This document shows positions 4,884 through 64,000 of a DNA stretch of 64,000 bases, piece by piece (position 1 is the stretch's first letter; every line of letters starts with the position of its first letter). Source of the stretch: a virus. The notes under the pieces are model-generated. The model did not search any database. It was not told the DNA's origin and saw only the letters and a program-made list of their open reading frames with translations. Location: positions 15,488 through 79,487 of the IMG/VR virus record IMGVR_UViG_3300047470_000115; one strand, given 5' to 3'. A program made the translations under genes and the position numbers.

Positions 4884-7800
4884 TTGAGCGCAGCAGTGAT
4901 GAACATCCAGGTCCGAGTTATCAACGGCAATGCCCGCTCGGTTCTTCGGTCTCTGCGCTCCGACATCGACAACGTGAACCGTGCACTTGGGGACACGAAT
5001 AAGCGGTCTGCACTTTCAGGTCGAGGCATGACCTCCCTGGGTAACCAGATCCAATGGACTGGACGACAGATCCAGACCAACTTCACCTTGCCACTCATCG
5101 CTGCAGGTGCTGCTGCAGTCCATTGGCAACTCCAAAACGAACAGGCGATGACAAGAGTCGCCAAGGTTTACGGGGACGCCTCTCTCTCTGCAGCCACAAT
5201 GAAGAACGAGCTCCATGCACTGAGTGGTGCATTCGAGGAACTGTCGAACCACTTCGGCGTGCAGCAGTCCGAGGTCATCGGCATCGCGGGTGACTGGGCT
5301 GCAGCCGGTGCATCAGGCCTTGCCCTCGCCAAGAGTGTCAAGCTCACCCTTGAGACCATGGTCCTCGGCGAGATGGACGCAGCCGAAGCGACGCAGGCAC
5401 TCATCGCGATCCAGGCACAGTACGGATTCAGCACTACTCGCCTCGCTGAAACGATCGGCTACCTGAACGCCGTCGAGAACCAGACCGGTATCTCGATGAA
5501 GGGCCTCATTCAGGGCTTCGCGCGTTCTGCTGGTGTAGCACGTCAGGCAGGTGTCGACGTCCGGCACCTGGCCGCCATGCTCGCAGCCATCAGCCCCGCT
5601 GCAGGTGGTGCGGCTGAAGCCGGTAACGCACTCAAGACTATCTTCTCTCGACTTGCATCTCCAACTCGCGAAACAAGTCAGGTGCTGAACCTCATGGGTA
5701 TCAGCATGAAGGACTTGGAGTGGAAGTCGTCGACGGCCACCGAGCAGCTTCAGATCATGTCGAAGAAGTTCAAAGAGCTGTCGGACAAGCAGAAGGAAGT
5801 CGTCTCGACGGTTGTCGCGTCGCGTTGGCAGATCAACAAGTTCTCCATCCTCATGCGTGAGTTGTCATCGGAGAACGGCTACTACCAGAAGGCGCTTGAT
5901 GCGACAGCGAGTCGTCAGCACGTCTTCAACCTGTACCAGAAGGAGCTCAACACTGTACTGAGCTCTAATCCGCGTCGGCTGCAGATCATCTGGACGATGA
6001 TGCAGAACGCTGCGACCGACATCATCCAGCCGATGATCCCACTTCTCCTGTATGTGGCGAACTCGGTTCGCATGGTGGTCCAAGCATTCTCGAGCTTGGA
6101 CCCGGCACTCCAGAAGCTTATCCTGTTCGGACTGGTAGCCCTCGCGTTTGTTGGGCCGTTCGTCAGGTACGTCGGATCGTTGCTGACGCTGATTGGCGCA
6201 CTCGTCACGATCGTCAGTGCCATGGCTGCGCCATTTATAGCTGGCTTCGCGGCCATCGGAACTGGCGCAGCAGCATTCGCTAAGGGTATTGGTTTCGTCT
6301 GGACCACCATCATGGTGAACCTGAGAGCCATTACTTATATCGGGATGGCCTGGATTCAAGGTGTCTGGGCTGCTGGCATGTTTGGACTGCGCCCCATCCT
6401 GTCGCTGGTCGGAATGATCATCGCGAGCAGGTGGGCAACGCTGATGGCAGCGCTCCCCCGTACCATGGCGGCAGCCCAGATCCTCATGAGGACGATCTGG
6501 ATCAATGGTCTGCTCGCCCTGGCCGCAGCACAGATCGTGGTAGGTGCCCTACTGACCCGCGCTTGGCTGGCGACCATGAGGGCGCAGGCTGTGATCACCT
6601 CGGTTGCGGGTACCGCAATCAGGGCAGCCTATACAGGTTTGATGCTGAGTATCGCGGCTATCTCGTCCGTGGTGTACCCGCTCGTTGTGCGCATGTGGAC
6701 TGCGATGATGACAGGCGTCTTCATCGTGGTGAACGCTTGGAGCAGGTTCACTACGATGATCTACCGCGCCTTTGCGATGGGCCTTACGCCCATCAGCGTG
6801 GCGGCTGGCGCGCTCCTCACTGCAGCCTGGACCGCAATTACCACTGCTGTACAGTACGTGCTCCTCGCTGGCACGATTGCGTACACAGCTATTTGGCGCC
6901 TGTTCGCCTTCGGCCTCGCGCCCATCACCGCAGCTGCAGGCAGGCTACTCACTGCAGCGTGGGTCGCGACAATGCGCGCCCAGATGATCGTGATGGCGGC
7001 AGCTCAGAGAGCGTGGGCTCTTGCGTGGTCCGGCATGGTCGCGATTGCTGCAGCTGGCTCCAGAGCCATCGCCCTCGTAACCACCATGGCCACGGGCGCG
7101 ATCACCCTCCTGGCGGCGTTCCCCGGACGCGTGGCAGCCCTCTTCCGTGGCGGTTGGGCCCTATTGCTAATAGTGGCGAGAGCCGGACTTGCCGGTCTCG
7201 CGTCGCTCATTACCGGCGCGGTTGGTGCGATCAGTTGGCCCGTCGTAGCAGTGATTGCTGCCGTCGTTCTGTTGATCGCAGGGTTCTGGGATCAGATCCA
7301 GGCCATCTGGAACAACATAGTCAACTACTTCAGCAACAGTGGGAACTCGCTAGTTACGGCAGTCAGGAACACCTTTGGCAGCCTGGGCAGCATGATGTCC
7401 AGGGTGTTCAACAAGCTGCCCGAGAGTGTGAAGAACGCAATGCTGGCGGTGGTCAGCCTGGTCGCCGCAGCCGCACGCAAGGTGTACGAACTCTTCAGCT
7501 ACATCAACCCGTTCGCGCATCACTCGCCCTCGCTCGTCGAGAATGTCACGAACGGTATGGCGATAGTTCGCAAGCAGTTCGCGACACTCTCCGAGGTTGA
7601 GGGTTACGTCAAGTCTGCCTACGCAACGATCAGTGCATTCGGGCGCGCGACGGCAGGCCTCGCCTCGAAGAACCAGGCAGCCGACTTCGCGGAGAAGCGC
7701 GCCTCGATCGTCAAGCAGTCCCCGAGTGCCGGGCCTGCGTTTGACTCGATGGTGGCACAGATCAATAAGCTGACGCCTGTACTTAACCAGCTGAAGTCTG

Positions 7801-46048: not shown

Positions 46049-46083
46049 CGGACGCACGCATTGCACGCATTGGCGCATCATAC
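46049..46083 (-). repeat. conserved upstream element, copy 1 (contains a -10-like TATGAT on -)
   Basis: 28/31 identical to 50878-50908; 18/18 identical to 55342-55359. Confidence 0.8.
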
Positions 46084-46096
46084 ACTATGGACAAAG

Positions 46097-46608: not shown

Positions 46609-46892
46609 CTCTGCTCTACCCCCACCAACTTGTCGAAGCAGTCGCCAGGCTCAGCCGTGACAATTCCGTGGGAAGTGCCACTCTGACCATGGATCGTAAC
46701 ACGGATGCGGCATTTGGGCCGCTTCCTAGCACGCATCGACGACCCGGGGGAATGCAGGGTCACGGGCCCAACTGTCGCAATCGAACCGTCAGGCATGACG
46801 ATCTGATCGGTTGCGACGAGCTGGACTGCAGCTATCGGTTCGGTTCTCACTCCCTCCGCCTGTTCGACACTCATGTTGCGCTTATCACTCAT
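46605..46892 (-). CDS. hypothetical protein
   Basis: GGGGAG RBS before MSDKRN. Confidence 0.6.
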   Translation of the reverse strand: MSDKRNMSVEQAEGVRTEPIAAVQLVATDQIVMPDGSIATVGPVTLHSPGSSMRARKRPKCRIRVTIHGQSGTSHGIVTAEPGDCFDKLVGVEQS

Positions 46893-47067
46893 TCGCTGCT
46901 CCCCAGGTGGAGATCCGAATACAACGAAGAGACCTGCTGTACGGCTTGCGACCGTATACCTCAACAAGTCAGGACCACCACCCAGTATAGGAAACGCGGC
47001 GCAGCGTGCGCATACTGGGGGGTGGACCTCACTTGATCGAGTACTCGACTCGATCATGGTGATACCG

Positions 47068-47097
47068 ATTCTAGCACTACGTGCCCCCAACCGTCAA
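47068..47097 (-). promoter_or_regulatory. promoter TTGACG-N18-TAGAAT (extended TG)
   Basis: HrdB-type consensus match. Confidence 0.75.
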
Positions 47098-47319
47098 CAG
47101 TTAGGGTACCCTAACCTAGCGCTGACGATTTGTCGACATGTCGCTACTCGCCCGGAGTGGCCATACTCAGATCAAGTTTGGCGCGGATGTTGTGATAGTT
47201 GGTCTCGTCACTCTCCGACCAGTCGCCGTCGTCAGAGTACTTCTGGCGGTGCGCGTCAAGCGCCTCCAGGACCAACGCATACTCGCCTTCAGTGAATTGC
47301 ATACTTGACCTTCCCCGGT

Positions 47320-47445
47320 AAGTAAAAACAAGGCGCTAGGGCGCTGCGCCGCAACCCAGAACTCAGGGCCACCCGAGTCTGGTTACCGGTCCAACCCGTT
47401 CAGGAAGACCGTGCGGCGCAGCTTCCTAGCGCCTTGTGTTTCGTT
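47320..47445 (-). ncRNA. candidate small regulatory RNA (~125 nt, three-way junction)
   Basis: Own promoter at 47451-47479; 13-bp plus 11-bp closing stems, two inner hairpins, U-tail at 47324-47328; no credible ORF. Confidence 0.7.
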
Positions 47446-47450
47446 GCCCG

Positions 47451-47479
47451 ATGATAACACGGGTGATCGCATCACACAA
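47451..47479 (-). promoter_or_regulatory. promoter TTGTGT-N17-TATCAT (extended TG) for the small RNA
   Basis: Sits between the upstream gene's terminator and the structured RNA. Confidence 0.6.
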
Positions 47480-47489
47480 CCCCCAACAA

Positions 47490-47532
47490 GTACTGAATCC
47501 CCCCGCATCTTGCTCTCGGGGGGATTCAGTAC
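47490..47532 (-). terminator. intrinsic terminator
   Basis: gtactgaatccccccg/cggggggattcagtac 16-bp stem. Confidence 0.8.
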
Positions 47533-47550
47533 CGGGCTGGGAGACCCGCG

Positions 47551-48666
47551 TCAGGCAGTCCGACGCGCACCCTTCTTGCCCTCCGGCGAGTCCTCGGCCG
47601 TGACACCCTCGATGTTCGGGATGGTGCTGGGGCCGCCGGACGACGGGAACAGGCGGGCGCTGACGGCACCGGCCGAGGGCGGGTTCTTGCCCTCGTACTC
47701 CTTCGACGGGAACTTCGAGATCCAGGCGATGGCCTTGAACTCGCCGACCGGCACGTCAGCCATGGCCTCGGCGACGTGCTTGCCGATGTCACCCTGGGCA
47801 CCACCCGGGACGCGCGGACGACTGCCGCCACCCGCCGAGGCGCGGCGCCGGGCACCGGCCGCCTTGCCGTCGGCCGCCTTGAAGGCGCGCTTCACGTACT
47901 CGGGCACCTCGGGCTCGTCGCCCCGGTTCTCGGTGTCCGTGTTCCGGTACCACTCGGCGTACGCCTCGAAGGACTTGTGCTCGTTGGTCTCCGGGTCCTG
48001 GTACGCGTTGACCAGGGCGTGGATCGACTCGCCCGCCTTCTCCTTGTCGACCTCGTCCGCGATCGGCAGCGCCATGGTGGCGAGCGACAGGGACAGGAAC
48101 TGGTCGACGTACGCCTCGGTCGGGTCGACCTTCGCCGCCGTCGCGGTGGCGCGGGTCGCCGTGGCCGCCTTCTTGGTCTCGTTGACCAGGAGGTTGTACG
48201 ACTTGGCGCGCATGATCGAGTCGTACATCGTGTCTTCGCCCTCGTCGTCCAGGAGCTCCTGGACCTTGCCCGTCAGCATCGGGCGGGCCTTGCGCTTCTC
48301 GCTGGCGTCGAGCTTGCGGTACGCCTCGCCGAACTTGGCGATGAGGGCCTCGGGGAGGGAGCCGGTCTGCTTGTCGCGACCCTCGTCCTCCATGATCTCG
48401 GCGCACAGCTTCATCAGGTCGGCGACCGGGTCGGCCTCGGGCTCGGTGGTCGCGTCCGCCTCGGCGGGCGCGTCGCCCTCGGAAGCCTGGGCCTCGCCGG
48501 TCGCCTCGGTGACCTCGGCCGGGGCCTCGTCGGTCGCTTCGGCCTCGGTCACCTCGGGCTCGGCCGCTGTTGCGGTCACGGTCGCCTCCTCGTTCCCGGT
48601 CTGCTCCGGGGTCTCGTTCGCCGTCTCGTCGGCAGTGGCAGTGTTGCGGGGGTTACGGCGAGCCAT
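47551..48666 (-). CDS. probably highly expressed protein: acidic Glu/Ala/Thr N-terminus, C-terminal wHTH-like domain
   Basis: Near-exclusive GC3 codons; GGAGG RBS; own promoter and terminator; NPPSAGAVSARL motif. Confidence 0.8.
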   Translation of the reverse strand: MARRNPRNTATADETANETPEQTGNEEATVTATAAEPEVTEAEATDEAPAEVTEATGEAQASEGDAPAEADATTEPEADPVADLMKLCAEIMEDEGRDKQTGSLPEALIAKFGEAYRKLDASEKRKARPMLTGKVQELLDDEGEDTMYDSIMRAKSYNLLVNETKKAATATRATATAAKVDPTEAYVDQFLSLSLATMALPIADEVDKEKAGESIHALVNAYQDPETNEHKSFEAYAEWYRNTDTENRGDEPEVPEYVKRAFKAADGKAAGARRRASAGGGSRPRVPGGAQGDIGKHVAEAMADVPVGEFKAIAWISKFPSKEYEGKNPPSAGAVSARLFPSSGGPSTIPNIEGVTAEDSPEGKKGARRTA

Positions 48667-48772
48667 GATGGAATCCTCCGAGATTCACAGTGCGGCAGGA
48701 ATACTTGCGTGGAATGTTGCTTATCAGTTTTAGGGCCTATGCGCCTAGGCGCGTCGCCCGTTCAATACGACT

Positions 48773-48801: not shown

Positions 48802-49088
48802 GCTGACATGCCCTGAGTGACCACTATTGACAATTACGTGACCAACGATCGGAACGTTCATTGCACGATAGGTGCATCGCACAGTTACGTTGATTACCGA
48901 TCGTCTTGGTGCATCTTGTCAAGGTATGCGGACGCAAGAACGGGCACCGTCTCCACAGAGGCGATGCCCGTTCCCTGCCACCCGTCAACCGGGCTCTTCG
49001 GAGTGCGCTGACACTATCACACGAGCCGCAACGCGCAACACCTACACGAGGTAGACGAACGCTCCCTTAAAACGAACTTAAGGGCAGC

Positions 49089-50841: not shown

Positions 50842-50877
50842 GTGTCCCTTTCCCGAGCGCTATGCAGAGGGCAGGGG

Positions 50878-50908
50878 CGCACACATTGCACGCATAGGCG
50901 CACCATAC
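50878..50908 (-). repeat. conserved upstream element, copy 2
   Basis: 28/31 match to 46053-46083. Confidence 0.8.
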
Positions 50909-51044
50909 CCTAAACTTGTAGCGTTCATGTATGCGCCAAGAGTATGGCGATCCTTTCTAGCCAAGCCGATCTGTCGCCCGAATGGACGTGACCGTGCTGG
51001 GTGCGGAGTCGGGGGTACTCACGCGCCCAGCACGGACATCTCCA

Positions 51045-55341: not shown

Positions 55342-55359
55342 CGGACGCACGCATTGCAC
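55342..55359 (-). repeat. conserved upstream element, partial copy 3
   Basis: cggacgcacgcattgcac identical to 46049-46066. Confidence 0.75.
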
Positions 55360-55394
55360 ACGTAGGGGCACAACCCCTGCATCCGGCCGAGTCG

Positions 55395-58216: not shown

Positions 58217-58464
58217 GTGCGATCACTCGCCTTGGCGAGGCTGACACCAGGCCCGCCGAACGCTCGGTTGTGGTGTCCGACCAGCTCGACGTCACGCATG
58301 AGAACTCCCAGACCCACGTAGCCCTTGCGATACAGGGCTTCGAGCCTACCGATCTTCCCCGGCTTGCACAGCATGCACAGGTGTTCGGTATTGGTGGGCA
58401 TCAACACGCTGACCTTCGCGGCCGACCTGATCCCTACGCCCAAGTCTACCAGGCGGGGGCTCAC
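58213..58464 (-). CDS. hypothetical protein
   Basis: GTGA overlaps on both sides. Confidence 0.55.
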   Translation of the reverse strand: MSPRLVDLGVGIRSAAKVSVLMPTNTEHLCMLCKPGKIGRLEALYRKGYVGLGVLMRDVELVGHHNRAFGGPGVSLAKASDRT

Positions 58465-59603
58465 GCCGCAACCGCCAGGGCACCCTGGGCGTACTTGGCG
58501 CGCTGCATGTTCAACTCGAAGAACTCGAGCATTCCGCTCACCTGCTGCCGTGTCGGCTCGGTGATGCCCTGCTTGGCGAGGATCTCACGTGCCAGGGTAC
58601 GCAGACGACGACGCTCGGCGAGGGCTTCCTCGCGGGCAGGGTCAGGTGCGGACTCCACCACCTTACGCGCCGCACGCTCACCGGCACGCGCCGCCTTCGA
58701 GAGTTCACGCTGTTCGCGCTTGTCCGCCCGGAGGTCAGCCTTATCCGCCTTGCGCTGCGCGGAGTTCTGCTGCTTCTCGAACTTCTCGGCGCTCACCACC
58801 TGGGCGAGGCGACGGATGCCGGGCAGGCCGTTGGCACGAGCGTACTCGACCGGGGTCTGTCCGTCAAGGCGGCGGAACTCCTCCACCTCCACGGACACGG
58901 CCAGGCCCTGCCTGTTGCGGTACTGCCGCGTGACGGTCGCACGGGTGACCTCACAGTCAGCCATGTCAGTTGTCCTCATCACACGGCCGAGACCGTCGCG
59001 GAATACACCCCTAGCGGCATCATCCACGTCTCGCTGTGCGCCCGTCTGGTACGCGAGGTAACCCTGCGACCTGTCCGCATCATACGCCACCTGCTCGGCG
59101 TGTGAACGCGTAACGGTCTTGGCCGTCTCACTGGCCATGGCGTTACGGTCAGGCATGTCGGACGACCAGTGCGGCTTGAGGACCGCACGGCTGGCCGCGC
59201 TGGTGTCACGTGAACTGGGATCAGTCCAGTCACCAGGGTTGCCCGGGATGTAGTCCCTGAACGGGGTCAGGCGGTAGCCCTTGGGGCGAGACACCTTACC
59301 CTTCGGGGGCATGACCTGCACACTGCCCGTGTTGAACTTCGGCACGTCACCCGGACGAGTGGCGCCAATGGCGACCTCGATCGGGGAGGTGTTGCCCGTG
59401 ATCAGGGACGCACCACGCTGGGCGGCACGCTTCCTGGCGGACTTGCTGGACCCCGCACGGTGTGCGAGAGCGGTGGCTTTGCGGCTGTCCGCCTCGGCAA
59501 CCAGCTCCACGCGGAGGGCTGCCAACTTGGACATGGTCGGGTCGGTCTTCGAGCCCGGCGTACTGCGTACGGCCTGGGCCCGACGCCTGGCGGCGCTGGA
59601 CAT
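58461..59603 (-). CDS. basic Arg/Lys/Ala-rich putative early protein
   Basis: First gene after a consensus promoter; GGGAG RBS. Confidence 0.75.
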   Translation of the reverse strand: MSSAARRRAQAVRSTPGSKTDPTMSKLAALRVELVAEADSRKATALAHRAGSSKSARKRAAQRGASLITGNTSPIEVAIGATRPGDVPKFNTGSVQVMPPKGKVSRPKGYRLTPFRDYIPGNPGDWTDPSSRDTSAASRAVLKPHWSSDMPDRNAMASETAKTVTRSHAEQVAYDADRSQGYLAYQTGAQRDVDDAARGVFRDGLGRVMRTTDMADCEVTRATVTRQYRNRQGLAVSVEVEEFRRLDGQTPVEYARANGLPGIRRLAQVVSAEKFEKQQNSAQRKADKADLRADKREQRELSKAARAGERAARKVVESAPDPAREEALAERRRLRTLAREILAKQGITEPTRQQVSGMLEFFELNMQRAKYAQGALAVAA

Positions 59604-59635
59604 GTGAGCTCCCGTGGCTAGCGGGTGAACGGGTT
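59601..59635 (-). promoter_or_regulatory. conserved 5'-leader element, copy 1 (AACCCGUUCA plus RBS hairpin)
   Basis: 31/35 identical to 60332-60366. Confidence 0.8.
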
Positions 59636-59659
59636 AGGTGGTGCGAAGTGCTGTGCAAC

Positions 59660-59688
59660 AGTCTAGCGAACTGGGTGGGCGGTGTCAA
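59660..59688 (-). promoter_or_regulatory. consensus promoter TTGACA-N17-TAGACT
   Basis: Exact -35, 17-bp spacer, HrdB-type -10. Confidence 0.85.
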
Positions 59689-59743
59689 CACCAGGTGATG
59701 CTTGGTGGTGGCGCCGCATACCCAGCATACCAGGCTGGGTGGT

Positions 59744-59772
59744 GCGTGGCCAGGTGTGGGGCCTGGCCACGC
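59744..59772 (-). terminator. hairpin after the 59789-60334 gene
   Basis: gcgtggccagg/cctggccacgc. Confidence 0.6.
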
Positions 59773-59788
59773 TATCCCGTGGGGGAGG

Positions 59789-60334
59789 TCAGGCCTTGGC
59801 GAGGCTGACACCGGTGGCGCTGTTCCGCGCATCGGCCAGCATCAGGTACAGGTAGCTCTTGGAGATCAGGCCCTCGCCGTACTGCCGATCGGCCTCGTTG
59901 GCGTGCTGGGCCGCCTCGCGCTGCTTCCTACGGCGACCGAGTCGACCGACCTCGGTGACGATAGCACGGAACTTGACCTCGGTCATCCGGCCCCGACGAA
60001 ACAGGCTCTCCGCCCGAACGATGGGGGTCACGGTCAGGCCGGTCCAGTTCTGGGTGGCACTGTTCGAACCTACGGGCACCGGGTCCGTGATGCGGCCCTG
60101 GGCACGGAGGTGCTCCTCGCTGGGCTGCTCCTCGGGGTACAGGTCGGACACGATGCTGACCCGCATGTACAGACTGGTGGTGAGGTACTCGGCGCAGGGG
60201 ACGCACACGTTGTACTCGTGCGTCGACTGATTCTCGCCGGAGGTCTCGCCCATGAATTCCGAGACACGGAACCTGGCGAACGGGATGACGGTGTTGCCCT
60301 GGTGGGCAAGGGTGTCCTCGCAAAGGGACTTCAT
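59789..60334 (-). CDS. hypothetical putative early protein (first leftward gene)
   Basis: AGGAG RBS; GC3 bias. Confidence 0.7.
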   Translation of the reverse strand: MKSLCEDTLAHQGNTVIPFARFRVSEFMGETSGENQSTHEYNVCVPCAEYLTTSLYMRVSIVSDLYPEEQPSEEHLRAQGRITDPVPVGSNSATQNWTGLTVTPIVRAESLFRRGRMTEVKFRAIVTEVGRLGRRRKQREAAQHANEADRQYGEGLISKSYLYLMLADARNSATGVSLAKA

Positions 60335-60366
60335 GTTTGCTCCTGTGGCTAGCAGGTGAACGGGTT
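60332..60366 (-). promoter_or_regulatory. conserved 5'-leader element, copy 2
   Basis: See copy 1; compensatory C-G to U-A change in the stem. Confidence 0.8.
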
Positions 60367-60369
60367 GAC

Positions 60370-62620
60370 ACTGACGCTATCGGATTGGACCAGGTTTAGC
60401 AACCTGGCCCGCTTCCCATAGGTCAGGGAAGGGCACTTTCGGCTTTGCGTTACCGGCGCTCGCCCGTTTCCGGGGTCTACGGCTCGACGACAAGTCGGGC
60501 CTTGGCGCGGGCTTGGGGGAGAACCCAAGCCTTTTCGTTCGCCTAATCGTGTGGTGCGTTGCTACCAGTCTAGCACACCTTGCCGGGGCTGGTCGCCCCC
60601 ACCGACAGGTGGACGTGCAGGTCTACGGTACTGCACCCCCCATATGGGCGGGGCTGGTGTTGCTAGTCCGACTGTAGCACGTTCGGCTGGGGCCTCGTAC
60701 CCCCCATGTGTTGAACGCGTAATGCCAGGCTAACGGCTTACCTATGCGCGGCCCACACGCTAGGACAGGTAGCACCGGTACGGAACCTGGCGTGACATAC
60801 CTACCCCTACATATAGGCGCCGCCAGGTATCGACTCCCTAGCTACGTCCTACGTTGGAGGGCCCTACTCCCCGCGCCTAATGGTGCGGTGTGGGACCGGC
60901 GCCTGGTGGGGGGATAGAACCCCCATCGGGCTGTGCCCAGTCTAGCACAGGTGCACTGGGTGGAACCCCGTGCGGACTGTGCGGGTTGGGCCTCACTACT
61001 ACGTGCGCCGTGCTGGCCGTGCGTTGTGGTGACGGGGTCGACTATTCCGCAAACGGACCAAGATCGCAACACCTTGTATGTAACGGAATGGTAACGCAGA
61101 ATCGGACTTGTTGGGGCACATTGCCGATAACACGGATTATCGGCATGTGGTGAAATTCATACAGAATGGGATCAGTCGCAACGTACCATAGCAAATTAGG
61201 ACATAAGGGTACGTATAGGTACTTATCGATCGCCGGCATTGAGGCAGACATATCGGACAAATGGTGGGATAAGTAAAATAACGGGCGGGGGGGTATGCGC
61301 GGCGCCTTTATGCAGGTCCGATGCATATCAACTTTTACGAGGTAAGAATGTATTCTGGACCTAACCCCGACTAAAAAACGCCAGTCATTTCGCTGTCCGC
61401 GAAAATAACCGCAGGTCAATGGGGGTTTGGGGGTCGGACGCCAGCGAAATAGCGGTCGTACTTAGCCTAGGAAATCGACGTCTTTTGCTACAGAAATCGC
61501 TGATTAATCCGAAAGAATGCATCGATTGCAGCCAGGATGCACCCACATGGGTGCCAGCTAGACGTCGAATGGCAAAAGAATCCGCTTTCGGACGTAAAGA
61601 CGCCCCCTAACTGTAGATATTCGCGAAACGGACATTTCCAAAGTCTCCTATGTCGTCGACACCTTTTACCAATTTTGCAATCAAGGTGCACCCGTCATGG
61701 GTGACCTGCCCTCTGTTTTCGGACGCCCTGGCTCGATGTCGGTACACCTCGCCGTCCGCTTTCACGTAGCGTGATGGAGCGGCGCGCAAAGCGGGTCCGA
61801 AGTCGCACCCACATGGGCGGGAGTCGGTTTAGTTATCACTCAAAAGATTCCCAAATCCGACAGATTGCCGTTTTGGCGTCAGCGAAATCAGCGAAATTGT
61901 CAGCACAAATAACCGCAGGTCAACCCCTATATGGGAGTGGTTTAAGCAATTTCGCTTACACCCCCCCCCCCCCCCCTTTCTCTGTTTGTCACTCACCGTT
62001 ACCCGGCACCCCACCCATGGGTGCGTCACCGTGCGTGCCTGGGGGTCCCCGGGGGGTCGGCCAAGCGTCAGCACAAATAATTCTGACCTGCGGTTTTGTA
62101 CGGCCACACCCCGTTTGGCGTGCGCATATTTTCGCGTACGGGGCCGTCAGCGCTATCAGCAGAATGACTGGTCTAATTCGGACATTCGGGTGACGATTAT
62201 CGTGATTCTGCAACAAGGCGTCCGTCCGCGGTTTCGCTGAACGTAGCCTTGCGTAGCACTGCATCTCACGCTCCGTATACACTGCTACGCCTTTTCGACT
62301 ACGCGGTACCCAGAATTTCCACGAGTCGTCCGTCATAGCCAGCCTTCGTGTCGAAATCCAGCATTCTGCATAGCGTGACGGGTATTTCTGGTGTCATCTC
62401 TGACGGTCCGTCAGATCCGTACATGATCAAATGTTAGATGTACCTTCAACCCACCGACAAAGTCGTTCCGCTGACGCTCAAAGTCGTATTCGCGGCCAAA
62501 AACTTGCACAAGAATCTAGCCCGGCGCCGTCCGCGCAATTCGCTGACCTGCGGAAACGTCCGTCAGCGGAATTGTTTGCCCCGTTATGTCCTATGTGCAA
62601 GTCGTGCACATACTTGGGCT
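60370..62620. other. large non-coding divergence region with several repeat families (candidate origin or genome-end/packaging region)
   Basis: No ORF with phage-like codon bias; AT-richer core; repeats CCGCAGGTCA, CCCAYATGGG and TCAGCRMAAT; C16 tract. Confidence 0.65.
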
Positions 62621-63661: not shown

Positions 63662-64000
63662 TGTTGCACAGCTGGTGTTGAAGGACAGCAGAGGTGTTGC
63701 GCCCCGTTGGGTCCGGCCTTGACCCTCGTAGCTTGCCAACGCCCCACGTTGCAGGCGCGAGGTGCCAAATCCCCCCCTGCCGCCTCGCGAGTGTCGAGGC
63801 CGGACCCGCCCCCAACTTAATAAGCAAGGCTGCGCGGTGCTGAGGTGCCGCTGGGGAGTGTCATGTCTCGTTCCGCGCAGCCTGATACCCCCTCCGCTAC
63901 CTCTAGGTAGCCAGTTGTATCGCAGGAAAGTCGTCCGGCCGACACTCCACCTGCGACGCGAGGGGAAAGAGCGAAGGCCCGACACCTAGCCTGCAGGTGT
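63662..64000 (+). ncRNA. candidate large structured RNA (may continue beyond the window)
   Basis: Successive nested stems with G-U pairs that work only on the + strand; no credible ORF. Confidence 0.55.

Follow-up and report, generated by a model that had tools for sequence, protein, structure and literature searches.

A candidate Y-shaped small RNA of a soil actinophage and its complementarity to a leader module duplicated before two putative early genes

The virus record IMGVR_UViG_3300047470_000115 is 79,487 bp long, has a GC content of ~60%, and is rated complete in IMG/VR. The window described here is the 64,000-nucleotide stretch that comprises bases 15488–79487 of this record, and positions refer to the window unless they are given as genome positions. 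We called 99 genes, arranged as a rightward structural block and, after it, a long leftward block extending from 60334 to ~22300. The phage is a lytic-looking soil actinophage, and its kin are all distant: Gordonia phages of the Montyvirus type, the Tsukamurella phages TIN3/4, and one IMG/VR contig (G001). Only about one-third of the proteins are shared with these phages, and the few shared ones show 31–38% amino-acid identity. The right end of the record (window 63869–64000) repeats the left end (genome 1–132) over ~130 bp with few mismatches, which reflects either terminal redundancy or the assembly wrap-around of a circularly permuted genome. In the intergenic regions of the leftward block, a 38-nt element is observed three times (46050–46087, 50875–50912, and 55343–55380) with 68–87% identity; its minus-strand copies start with −10 sequences resembling TAGTGT, and it is probably a repeated promoter or leader module.

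The locus of interest lies on the minus strand between a gene for a 371-aa protein (47551–48666, minus strand) and an acidic 52-aa ORF (47144–47302, minus strand). Per codon, no other gene of the genome reaches the coding score of the 371-aa gene. Its product matches a single family, phrog_6708, to which no function is assigned; no Pfam family was matched, and nothing usable was found in the ESM Atlas. The AlphaFold model of the protein (pLDDT 78.5) comprises a disordered acidic N terminus (residues 1–75), a helical domain, and a C-terminal winged-helix-like domain. Foldseek found no PDB match for this model, and VIA-align returned generic helical-bundle matches only. The protein had been proposed as a possible partner of the neighboring RNA when the DNA was read on its own, a proposal that found no backing, as nothing in the domain or structure searches ties the protein to RNA. 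The 371-aa gene is closed by a 15-bp terminator-like hairpin (47490–47532, minus strand), read directly and giving generic Rfam hairpin matches only, that separates the gene from the small-RNA promoter; because the gene has this hairpin of its own, the Y-shaped element is not needed to terminate it. On the other side of the RNA, 18 nt lie between the U-tail and the start of the 52-aa ORF; the ribosome-binding site of this ORF is good, its per-codon coding score is like that of its neighbors, and no homologue was found. There is no room for a separate promoter before this ORF, so it would be transcribed only by read-through of the small-RNA terminator, and the small RNA may therefore also be its attenuating leader. 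Beyond the ORF, a perfect 14-bp palindrome, TTAGGGTACCCTAA (47098–47125, minus strand), adjoins the −35 element of a strong promoter, TTGACG-18-TAGAAT (47068–47097, minus strand), which has 10 of 12 consensus matches plus a TG and drives the structured ~170-nt leader of a gene starting near 46892.

The RNA between these two genes (47322–47444, minus strand) is ~120 nt long and is delineated by its fold, a consensus structure of 44 base pairs, and a covariance model. When positions 47320–47445 of the minus strand are folded, a 13-bp closing helix (47425–47437 with 47328–47340) and an 11-bp closing helix (47412–47422 with 47343–47353), split by a 2×2 internal loop, lead into a three-way junction that bears two hairpins, hairpin 1 (47387–47411) and hairpin 2 (47356–47382). 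The unit ends in a UUUUU tail (47323–47327). Folding thus reproduces the ~125-nt unit that the sequence-only reading had described, with its closing helices, two inner hairpins, and U-tail at the same coordinates. The minimum free energy is −78.5 kcal/mol as compared with a shuffle mean of −44.9 kcal/mol (z −8.9), and none of 200 shuffles folds as well. The plus strand of the element folds nearly as well (−73 kcal/mol, z −9.3), and both strands end in U-rich tracts. Since the fold is nearly strand-symmetric, the strand call is based on the promoter, the uninterrupted U-tail, the three G·U pairs used in the minus-strand fold, and the orientation of the genes; the covariance-model scores of the two strands are 147 bits (minus) and 51 bits (plus).

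No described RNA family accounts for this element. At gathering thresholds, no Rfam 15 family matches anywhere in the window, in agreement with the earlier impression that the RNA belongs to no recognized family; with relaxed thresholds (E up to 10, 46800–47700), the only matches are to a generic miRNA hairpin and to Ms1, both chance matches far below threshold. No tRNA or tmRNA is called in the region, and these identities were set aside, as was a phi29-type pRNA, which has no Rfam match. A retron non-coding RNA and the omega RNA of TnpB/IscB were also set aside, given that the neighboring proteins that were scanned contain none of the Pfam domains these systems need. Y RNAs of the YrlA type are recognized by a long stem formed by the 5′ and 3′ ends, a tRNA-like module, and a neighboring gene for the TROVE-domain protein Rsr. 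For a Y RNA or YrlA acting with Ro/Rsr, there is no Rfam match, no tRNA-like call, and no TROVE domain in the neighboring proteins scanned. The unit contains no convincing ORF.

The putative promoter of the RNA (47451–47479, minus strand; read directly) consists of TTGTGT, a 17-nt spacer, and TATCAT at 47451–47456, which is directly preceded by TGT to give an extended −10 element. The elements and spacing named in the sequence-only reading are therefore present, and the extended −10 adds to them, but the −35 element is poor, matching TTGACA at only three of six positions, and the promoter was not listed by a consensus promoter scanner. Approximately 22 of 25 positions of the promoter, covering the spacer, the −10 element, and 3 nt downstream, recur on the plus strand at genome 7237–7268. 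This paralogous promoter precedes a second non-coding unit of ~150 nt with a strong terminator (genome 7237–7425, plus strand; ~8,060–8,250 bases before the window start), and this second unit carries the box core ACCCGUUC, described below for the leaders, in the sense orientation at genome 7350. That the two paralogous promoters each stand before a structured, terminator-ended non-coding unit is the best internal evidence that the small-RNA promoter is real. With its own promoter on one side and, on the other, an intrinsic terminator composed of the GC-rich closing helix followed by U5, the locus is well supported by its sequence as a stand-alone, terminator-ended structured RNA unit. It is a genuine candidate for a small-RNA gene that matches no described family.

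The sequences complementary to hairpin 1 are found at the other end of the leftward block, in the leaders of its first two genes. The first gene of the block (59789–60334, minus strand; gene call) encodes a 181-aa protein, and the second (58461–59603, minus strand; gene call) encodes a 380-aa protein; both are putative targets, and both products are basic orphan proteins. No Pfam or PHROG family and no phage homologue was found for either protein, including a tblastn search of 50,697 phage records with the 380-aa protein, for which the ESM Atlas also returned nothing. Leader module 1 (59601–59637, minus strand) contains the box CU-AACCCGUUCA and a weak hairpin that overlaps the Shine-Dalgarno sequence, followed by the ATG at 59603. 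Leader module 2 (60332–60368, minus strand) contains the box UC-AACCCGUUCA and a hairpin with a compensatory change from C-G to U-A, followed by the ATG at 60334. The two modules, assigned to repeat family D10, are identical at 31 of 35 positions, and their similarity stops at the ATG. This 35-nt module is the only duplicated start-site module among the 99 genes; its core before the ATG, GCUAGCCAC-R-GGAGC, is present in two copies only. Folded alone, the two leader hairpins have little stability (−3.9 and −5.6 kcal/mol, z about 0). Leader 1 is preceded by a promoter, TTGACA-17-TAGACT, and in leader 2 a −10-like TAGCGT (60374–60379) is followed ~7–8 nt later by the start of the box. Upstream of the first leftward gene, nearly 2 kb (60335–62298) is devoid of a convincing gene and contains several −10-like TAGACT/TAGCGT sites and hairpins.

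The putative seed, UGAACGGGUUGG (47391–47402, minus strand; read directly and from folding), forms the apical part of hairpin 1. The window contains three copies of the 10-mer AACCCGTTCA (47393–47402, plus strand; 59626–59635, minus strand; 60357–60366, minus strand) as compared with 0.11 copies expected, a count reached by none of 100 shuffles, and there is no fourth copy anywhere in the 79,487-bp genome. One copy lies antisense in hairpin 1, and the other two end 23 nt before the start codons of the leader genes, placing the box at about −33 to −23. The observation from the letters that both leaders carry the complement of the seed before the ribosome-binding-site hairpin, with 12 nt of pairing that include one G-U in each leader, is correct. 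Both leaders have two pyrimidines directly 5′ of the box (CU and UC), which can pair with the GG of the small RNA. Hairpin 1 has a stem of 6 bp and an inner stem of 3 bp (CCU/GGG), together with a GAAC tetraloop and a UU bulge; of these, only GAAC and UU are freely accessible. The sequence and place of the seed had been given correctly, but it is partly paired inside the hairpin rather than presented as a free loop, so that its full use costs 4–6 kcal/mol of opening energy. The leader box, on the other side of the interaction, is predicted to be accessible, at an opening energy of 0.7–1.2 kcal/mol.

Pairing was scored for contiguous helices of Watson-Crick and G·U pairs with nearest-neighbor energies and the opening energies of both partners; RNAcofold cannot model an interaction between a loop and its target (kissing), and the trivial 4-bp contact that it returned was discarded. 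In this accessibility-aware ranking of the small RNA against the phage leaders, which the sequence-only reading had called for, the two leaders rank first and second among 99 start regions (−70 to +25), at −10.4 and −9.4 kcal/mol, with the next region at −4.1 kcal/mol. They remain first and second in a genome-wide scan of both strands, the self-antisense site aside, which also contains one coding-region site at −8.6 kcal/mol. When the 13 nt of loop 1 are permuted, a best start-region match at least as strong is obtained in 14 of 150 trials (9%), and two equally strong matches are obtained in 2 of 150. Among all combinations of 43 intergenic regions with the 99 start regions, 127 non-trivial pairs reach −10 kcal/mol or lower; with so many comparable pairs, pairing energy alone is not unusual and does not constitute evidence. 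Once the search space is counted, the pairing of seed and leader is statistically modest. What is unusual is the placement of the best match: it lies at the 5′ side of the only duplicated start module, in a part that is conserved and single-stranded, a placement open to ~2 of 99 start regions. Taken together with the 9% of loop permutations, this placement has a joint chance of ~0.002–0.01, the two leaders being counted as one event as they are paralogues. A possible second contact is provided by GUGGC at the tip of hairpin 2 (47368–47372, minus strand; from folding), which had been noted before together with GCCAC in both leader hairpins; both are present, with GCCAC at 59614–59618 and 60345–60349. 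GCCAC is found within −40 to −1 in only 5 of 99 start regions, and the two leaders are among the five. The pairing scan also shows an 11-nt site inside the 380-aa ORF (59255–59265, minus strand) that is complementary to nt 41–51 of the RNA, and a weaker 8-nt complementary site inside the 181-aa ORF (60277–60284, minus strand).

Relatives of the locus are scarce. The region has no DNA match in 50,697 phage records in either near or distant mode, and when IMG/VR was scanned for exact patterns of the RNA, the leader and its hairpin, and the shared promoter, there was no match. Pattern scans of GTDB genome contigs gave no match, and the 16 matches to the hairpin pattern in JGI metagenomes are all in chance contexts. 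Protein-based locus searches of IMG/VR with the 371-aa protein, alone or together with the AAA-ATPase, also returned nothing. An IMG/VR locus search with an alignment of 371-aa homologues found one distant relative at 36% identity, which is G001; the closest relatives of the 371-aa protein (P0002–P0008), at 44–61% identity, are found only in Logan assemblies. A covariance model built from the single small-RNA sequence finds no homologue in G001, Hotorobo, or TIN4. In the related phages, strongly structured intergenic regions are observed downstream of the 371-aa homologue, and these regions lack complementarity to leaders.

Close variants are present in the DNA reads of three soil-metagenome runs of another study. 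In one contig from these (X2), which covers 58940–60420, the 35-nt module of leader 1 is unchanged and the 7 nt just upstream of it are deleted. The only changes in leader 2 are one spacer base and the replacement of the U of the terminal G·U pair by C, which creates a G-C pair; the box is unchanged. Across 47301–48236, X2 has 11 differences. The variation in the X2 leaders fits the pairing model but is very weak evidence. In G001 (the record of L004), three related start-site modules are found before the first leftward genes, at 7782, 8379, and 9102 (minus strand). Each is made up of TTGACCCGCTAGACGGAGGTAA, 3–4 nt, and ATG, with the core CCCGCTAG..ACGGAGG. The G001 modules have no upstream box, and no complementary intergenic RNA is found on the transcribed strand of G001, which argues that the start module is older than an antisense partner and workable without one. 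The box and the small RNA would then be an addition specific to the lineage of this phage. Hotorobo and TIN4 have duplicated start modules of their own, such as CACTACCGTAAGGAGTG, and the repetition of such modules appears to be usual in this phage group.

The best single explanation of these features is that the small RNA represses both early leaders in trans, a reading that we hold tentatively and at somewhat less than even confidence. The RNA would be transcribed from its own promoter, ended by its intrinsic terminator, and would accumulate. The GAAC tetraloop of hairpin 1 (UGAACGGGUUGG) would then nucleate on the open leader box AACCCGUUCA, and the pairing could grow to 10–12 bp as the weak inner stem opens. 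The GUGGC tip of hairpin 2 may add a 5-bp contact with GCCAC at −15 to −11, beside the Shine-Dalgarno sequence. Bound in this manner, the bulky three-way-junction RNA would cover −34 to −11 and block the standby or landing site of the 30S subunit, and translation of the first two leftward genes, presumably early genes, would be shut off. Activation is less likely than repression, since the leader hairpin is too weak to need opening. With imperfect termination, the same promoter could also express the 52-aa ORF, and the RNA would double as a 5′ leader. A trans-acting RNA that switches the two leader genes had been the central proposal of the sequence-only reading; the RNA unit and the top ranking of the leaders speak for it, but the pairing is statistically modest and the seed is partly sequestered.

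It is possible, although we consider it unlikely, that the RNA is real and its match to the leaders is coincidental, the RNA serving in cis as the 5′ leader of the 52-aa ORF, as its attenuator, or as a structure between transcription units that aids processing or stability, or else acting in trans on another target, for example in the host. The 52-aa ORF, with its normal coding score and lack of promoter room 18 nt after the U-tail, fits a role in cis, and the 24-bp closing helix with its internal loop appears to resemble intercistronic processing hairpins. Equally strong matches are common in the genome, and the structured regions that follow the 371-aa homologue in the related phages have no leader complementarity. 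Coincidence does not, however, readily account for a best match that lies exactly in the accessible, conserved part of the only duplicated module, with the joint chance given above; moreover, the 52-aa ORF has no homologue, and no riboswitch or leader family is matched. A role that involves no base pairing at all, in which the element is a protein-binding or decoy RNA or a mere bidirectional terminator or insulator, is very improbable. Such a role would fit the nearly equal stability of the plus-strand fold, the U-rich tracts at the ends of both strands, and the position of the element between two strongly expressed-looking units, one of which encodes the 371-aa protein with its top codon score and winged-helix-like C-terminal domain. 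Yet the upstream gene already has its 15-bp terminator hairpin, there are no plus-strand genes nearby to terminate, a simple terminator needs no three-way junction, a dedicated transcript is suggested by the paralogous promoter, and nothing ties the 371-aa protein to RNA.

The shared motif could also be a double-stranded DNA site for a DNA-binding protein of the phage or host, such as an early autoregulator, with the antisense relation a by-product of site orientation; this we judge distinctly unlikely. The 8-mer CCCGTTCA is over-represented, with seven copies as compared with 2.45 expected and none of 100 shuffles reaching seven, and four of the copies lie just downstream of −10 elements. The motif begins 8 nt after TAGCGT in leader 2 and is also downstream of the promoter in leader 1 and in the RNA gene. 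A second anti-box copy, UGAACGGGC (48757–48765, minus strand), begins 8–9 nt after TACTGT, the −10 element of the 371-aa gene, which places it at the 5′ end of the mRNA or close by; it could mark a DNA site or form 8 bp with the leader boxes. A DNA site permits the mixed orientation of the copies, and the basic orphan proteins encoded behind the leaders would suit an autoregulator. Taken together, the box and anti-box copies could belong either to a wider network of RNAs or to a short DNA site that closely follows several promoters. Against a DNA site, the distance from the box to the start codon is identical in both leaders (23 nt), whereas the distance from the box to the −10 element differs (8 versus 25 nt), and the box is contiguous with a start-site hairpin whose compensatory base change points to a unit at the RNA level. 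This fixed distance and adjoining hairpin would favor the RNA level over a DNA site. In addition, the flanking variation is only C/U, as pairing with G predicts, the motif is not palindromic, three of its seven copies are in ordinary coding sequence, and no DNA-binding protein could be tied to it. The same 7-mer core is seen again in the arms, GAACGGGCA and TGCCCGTTC, of a terminator-like hairpin upstream of the 371-aa promoter (48938–48975, minus strand). The seed core GAACGGGU (47394–47401) also lies within what we take to be a conserved stretch, GGCGAACGGGUGAGUAA, of actinobacterial 16S rRNA, a stretch that is probably buried. If this match holds, rRNA would in principle be a pairing partner of the leader box, and the small RNA a mimic of the stretch, a scheme of low probability.

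Repression of the two leaders in trans may itself be part of a larger box and anti-box RNA network, a doubtful but conceivable extension. In such a network, the trans ligand of the early start-associated leader module would be the Y-shaped RNA, perhaps together with the 5′ end of the 371-aa mRNA, and the second small RNA, which carries the box in sense, could be a sponge. If the small RNA and its duplicated leader pair were validated, they would give a compact system for the temporal shut-off of early genes. Should the motif instead prove to be coincidental or a DNA operator, the locus would still be a structured RNA gene of unusual stability and of no described family, one that deserves an Rfam entry when relatives can be added.

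Close parallels in function are the c4 RNA of phages P1 and P7 and the CI RNA of P4, small structured phage RNAs whose loops pair with short boxes duplicated in leader RNA. The expression of early or lytic functions is thereby stopped, either at ribosome binding or by termination. These RNAs are processed from the operon that they control and belong to temperate enterobacterial elements. Similar to these RNAs, the candidate presents a hairpin sequence complementary to a box that is duplicated in leaders. The main differences are that it has its own promoter and lies 12–13 kb from its predicted targets; with these differences and no Rfam match, it is not a member of the c4 or CI families. A model for the DNA-site explanation is provided by the stoperators of L5, which, as they are cited in PMC3203893, are asymmetric 13-bp sites present in tens of copies and in one orientation relative to transcription. 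The present motif, like the stoperators as so described, is short, non-palindromic, and located downstream of promoters in an actinophage, but it differs from them in its three copies of the 10-mer (seven of the 8-mer) and their mixed orientation.

The leader modules are reminiscent of the SAS and ESAS of Cluster K mycobacteriophages, short asymmetric repeats directly upstream of the start codons of non-structural genes of unrelated families (PMC3203893; PMC12699233). SAS, GGGATAGGAGCCC, is present in 11–19 copies per genome and includes the Shine-Dalgarno sequence; the authors left undecided whether its ligand is RNA or protein, and its function was still untested in 2025 (PMC3203893; PMC12699233). 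Assignment to SAS is by many copies of GGGATAGGAGCCC with two mismatches or fewer, 3–7 bp before a start codon (PMC3203893). As in SAS, the leader modules are repeats directly before start codons that include the Shine-Dalgarno sequence. Unlike SAS, the 35-nt module has only two copies and an additional box upstream, and it belongs to an unrelated phage group; since sequence, copy number, and phage group all differ, the leader modules are not SAS members. Abundant non-coding RNAs are also observed in actinophages: the phages D29 and Kampy and the Rhodococcus phage WC1 have strongly transcribed intergenic non-coding RNAs of unknown function, found by RNA-seq at genome ends or centers, for which no target pairing has been proposed (PMC10986025). 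The small RNA is likewise an intergenic non-coding unit of an actinophage; the difference is that it is known here from sequence alone and has a specific predicted target. The SAS/ESAS start-site repeats have had no known binding partner since 2011 (PMC3203893; PMC12699233), and the RNA network, if true, would provide the first identified ligand for SAS-like start-site repeats in actinophages. A validated pair of small RNA and duplicated leaders would thus join the start-site repeats of actinophages with their abundant non-coding RNAs, for which no targets are known.
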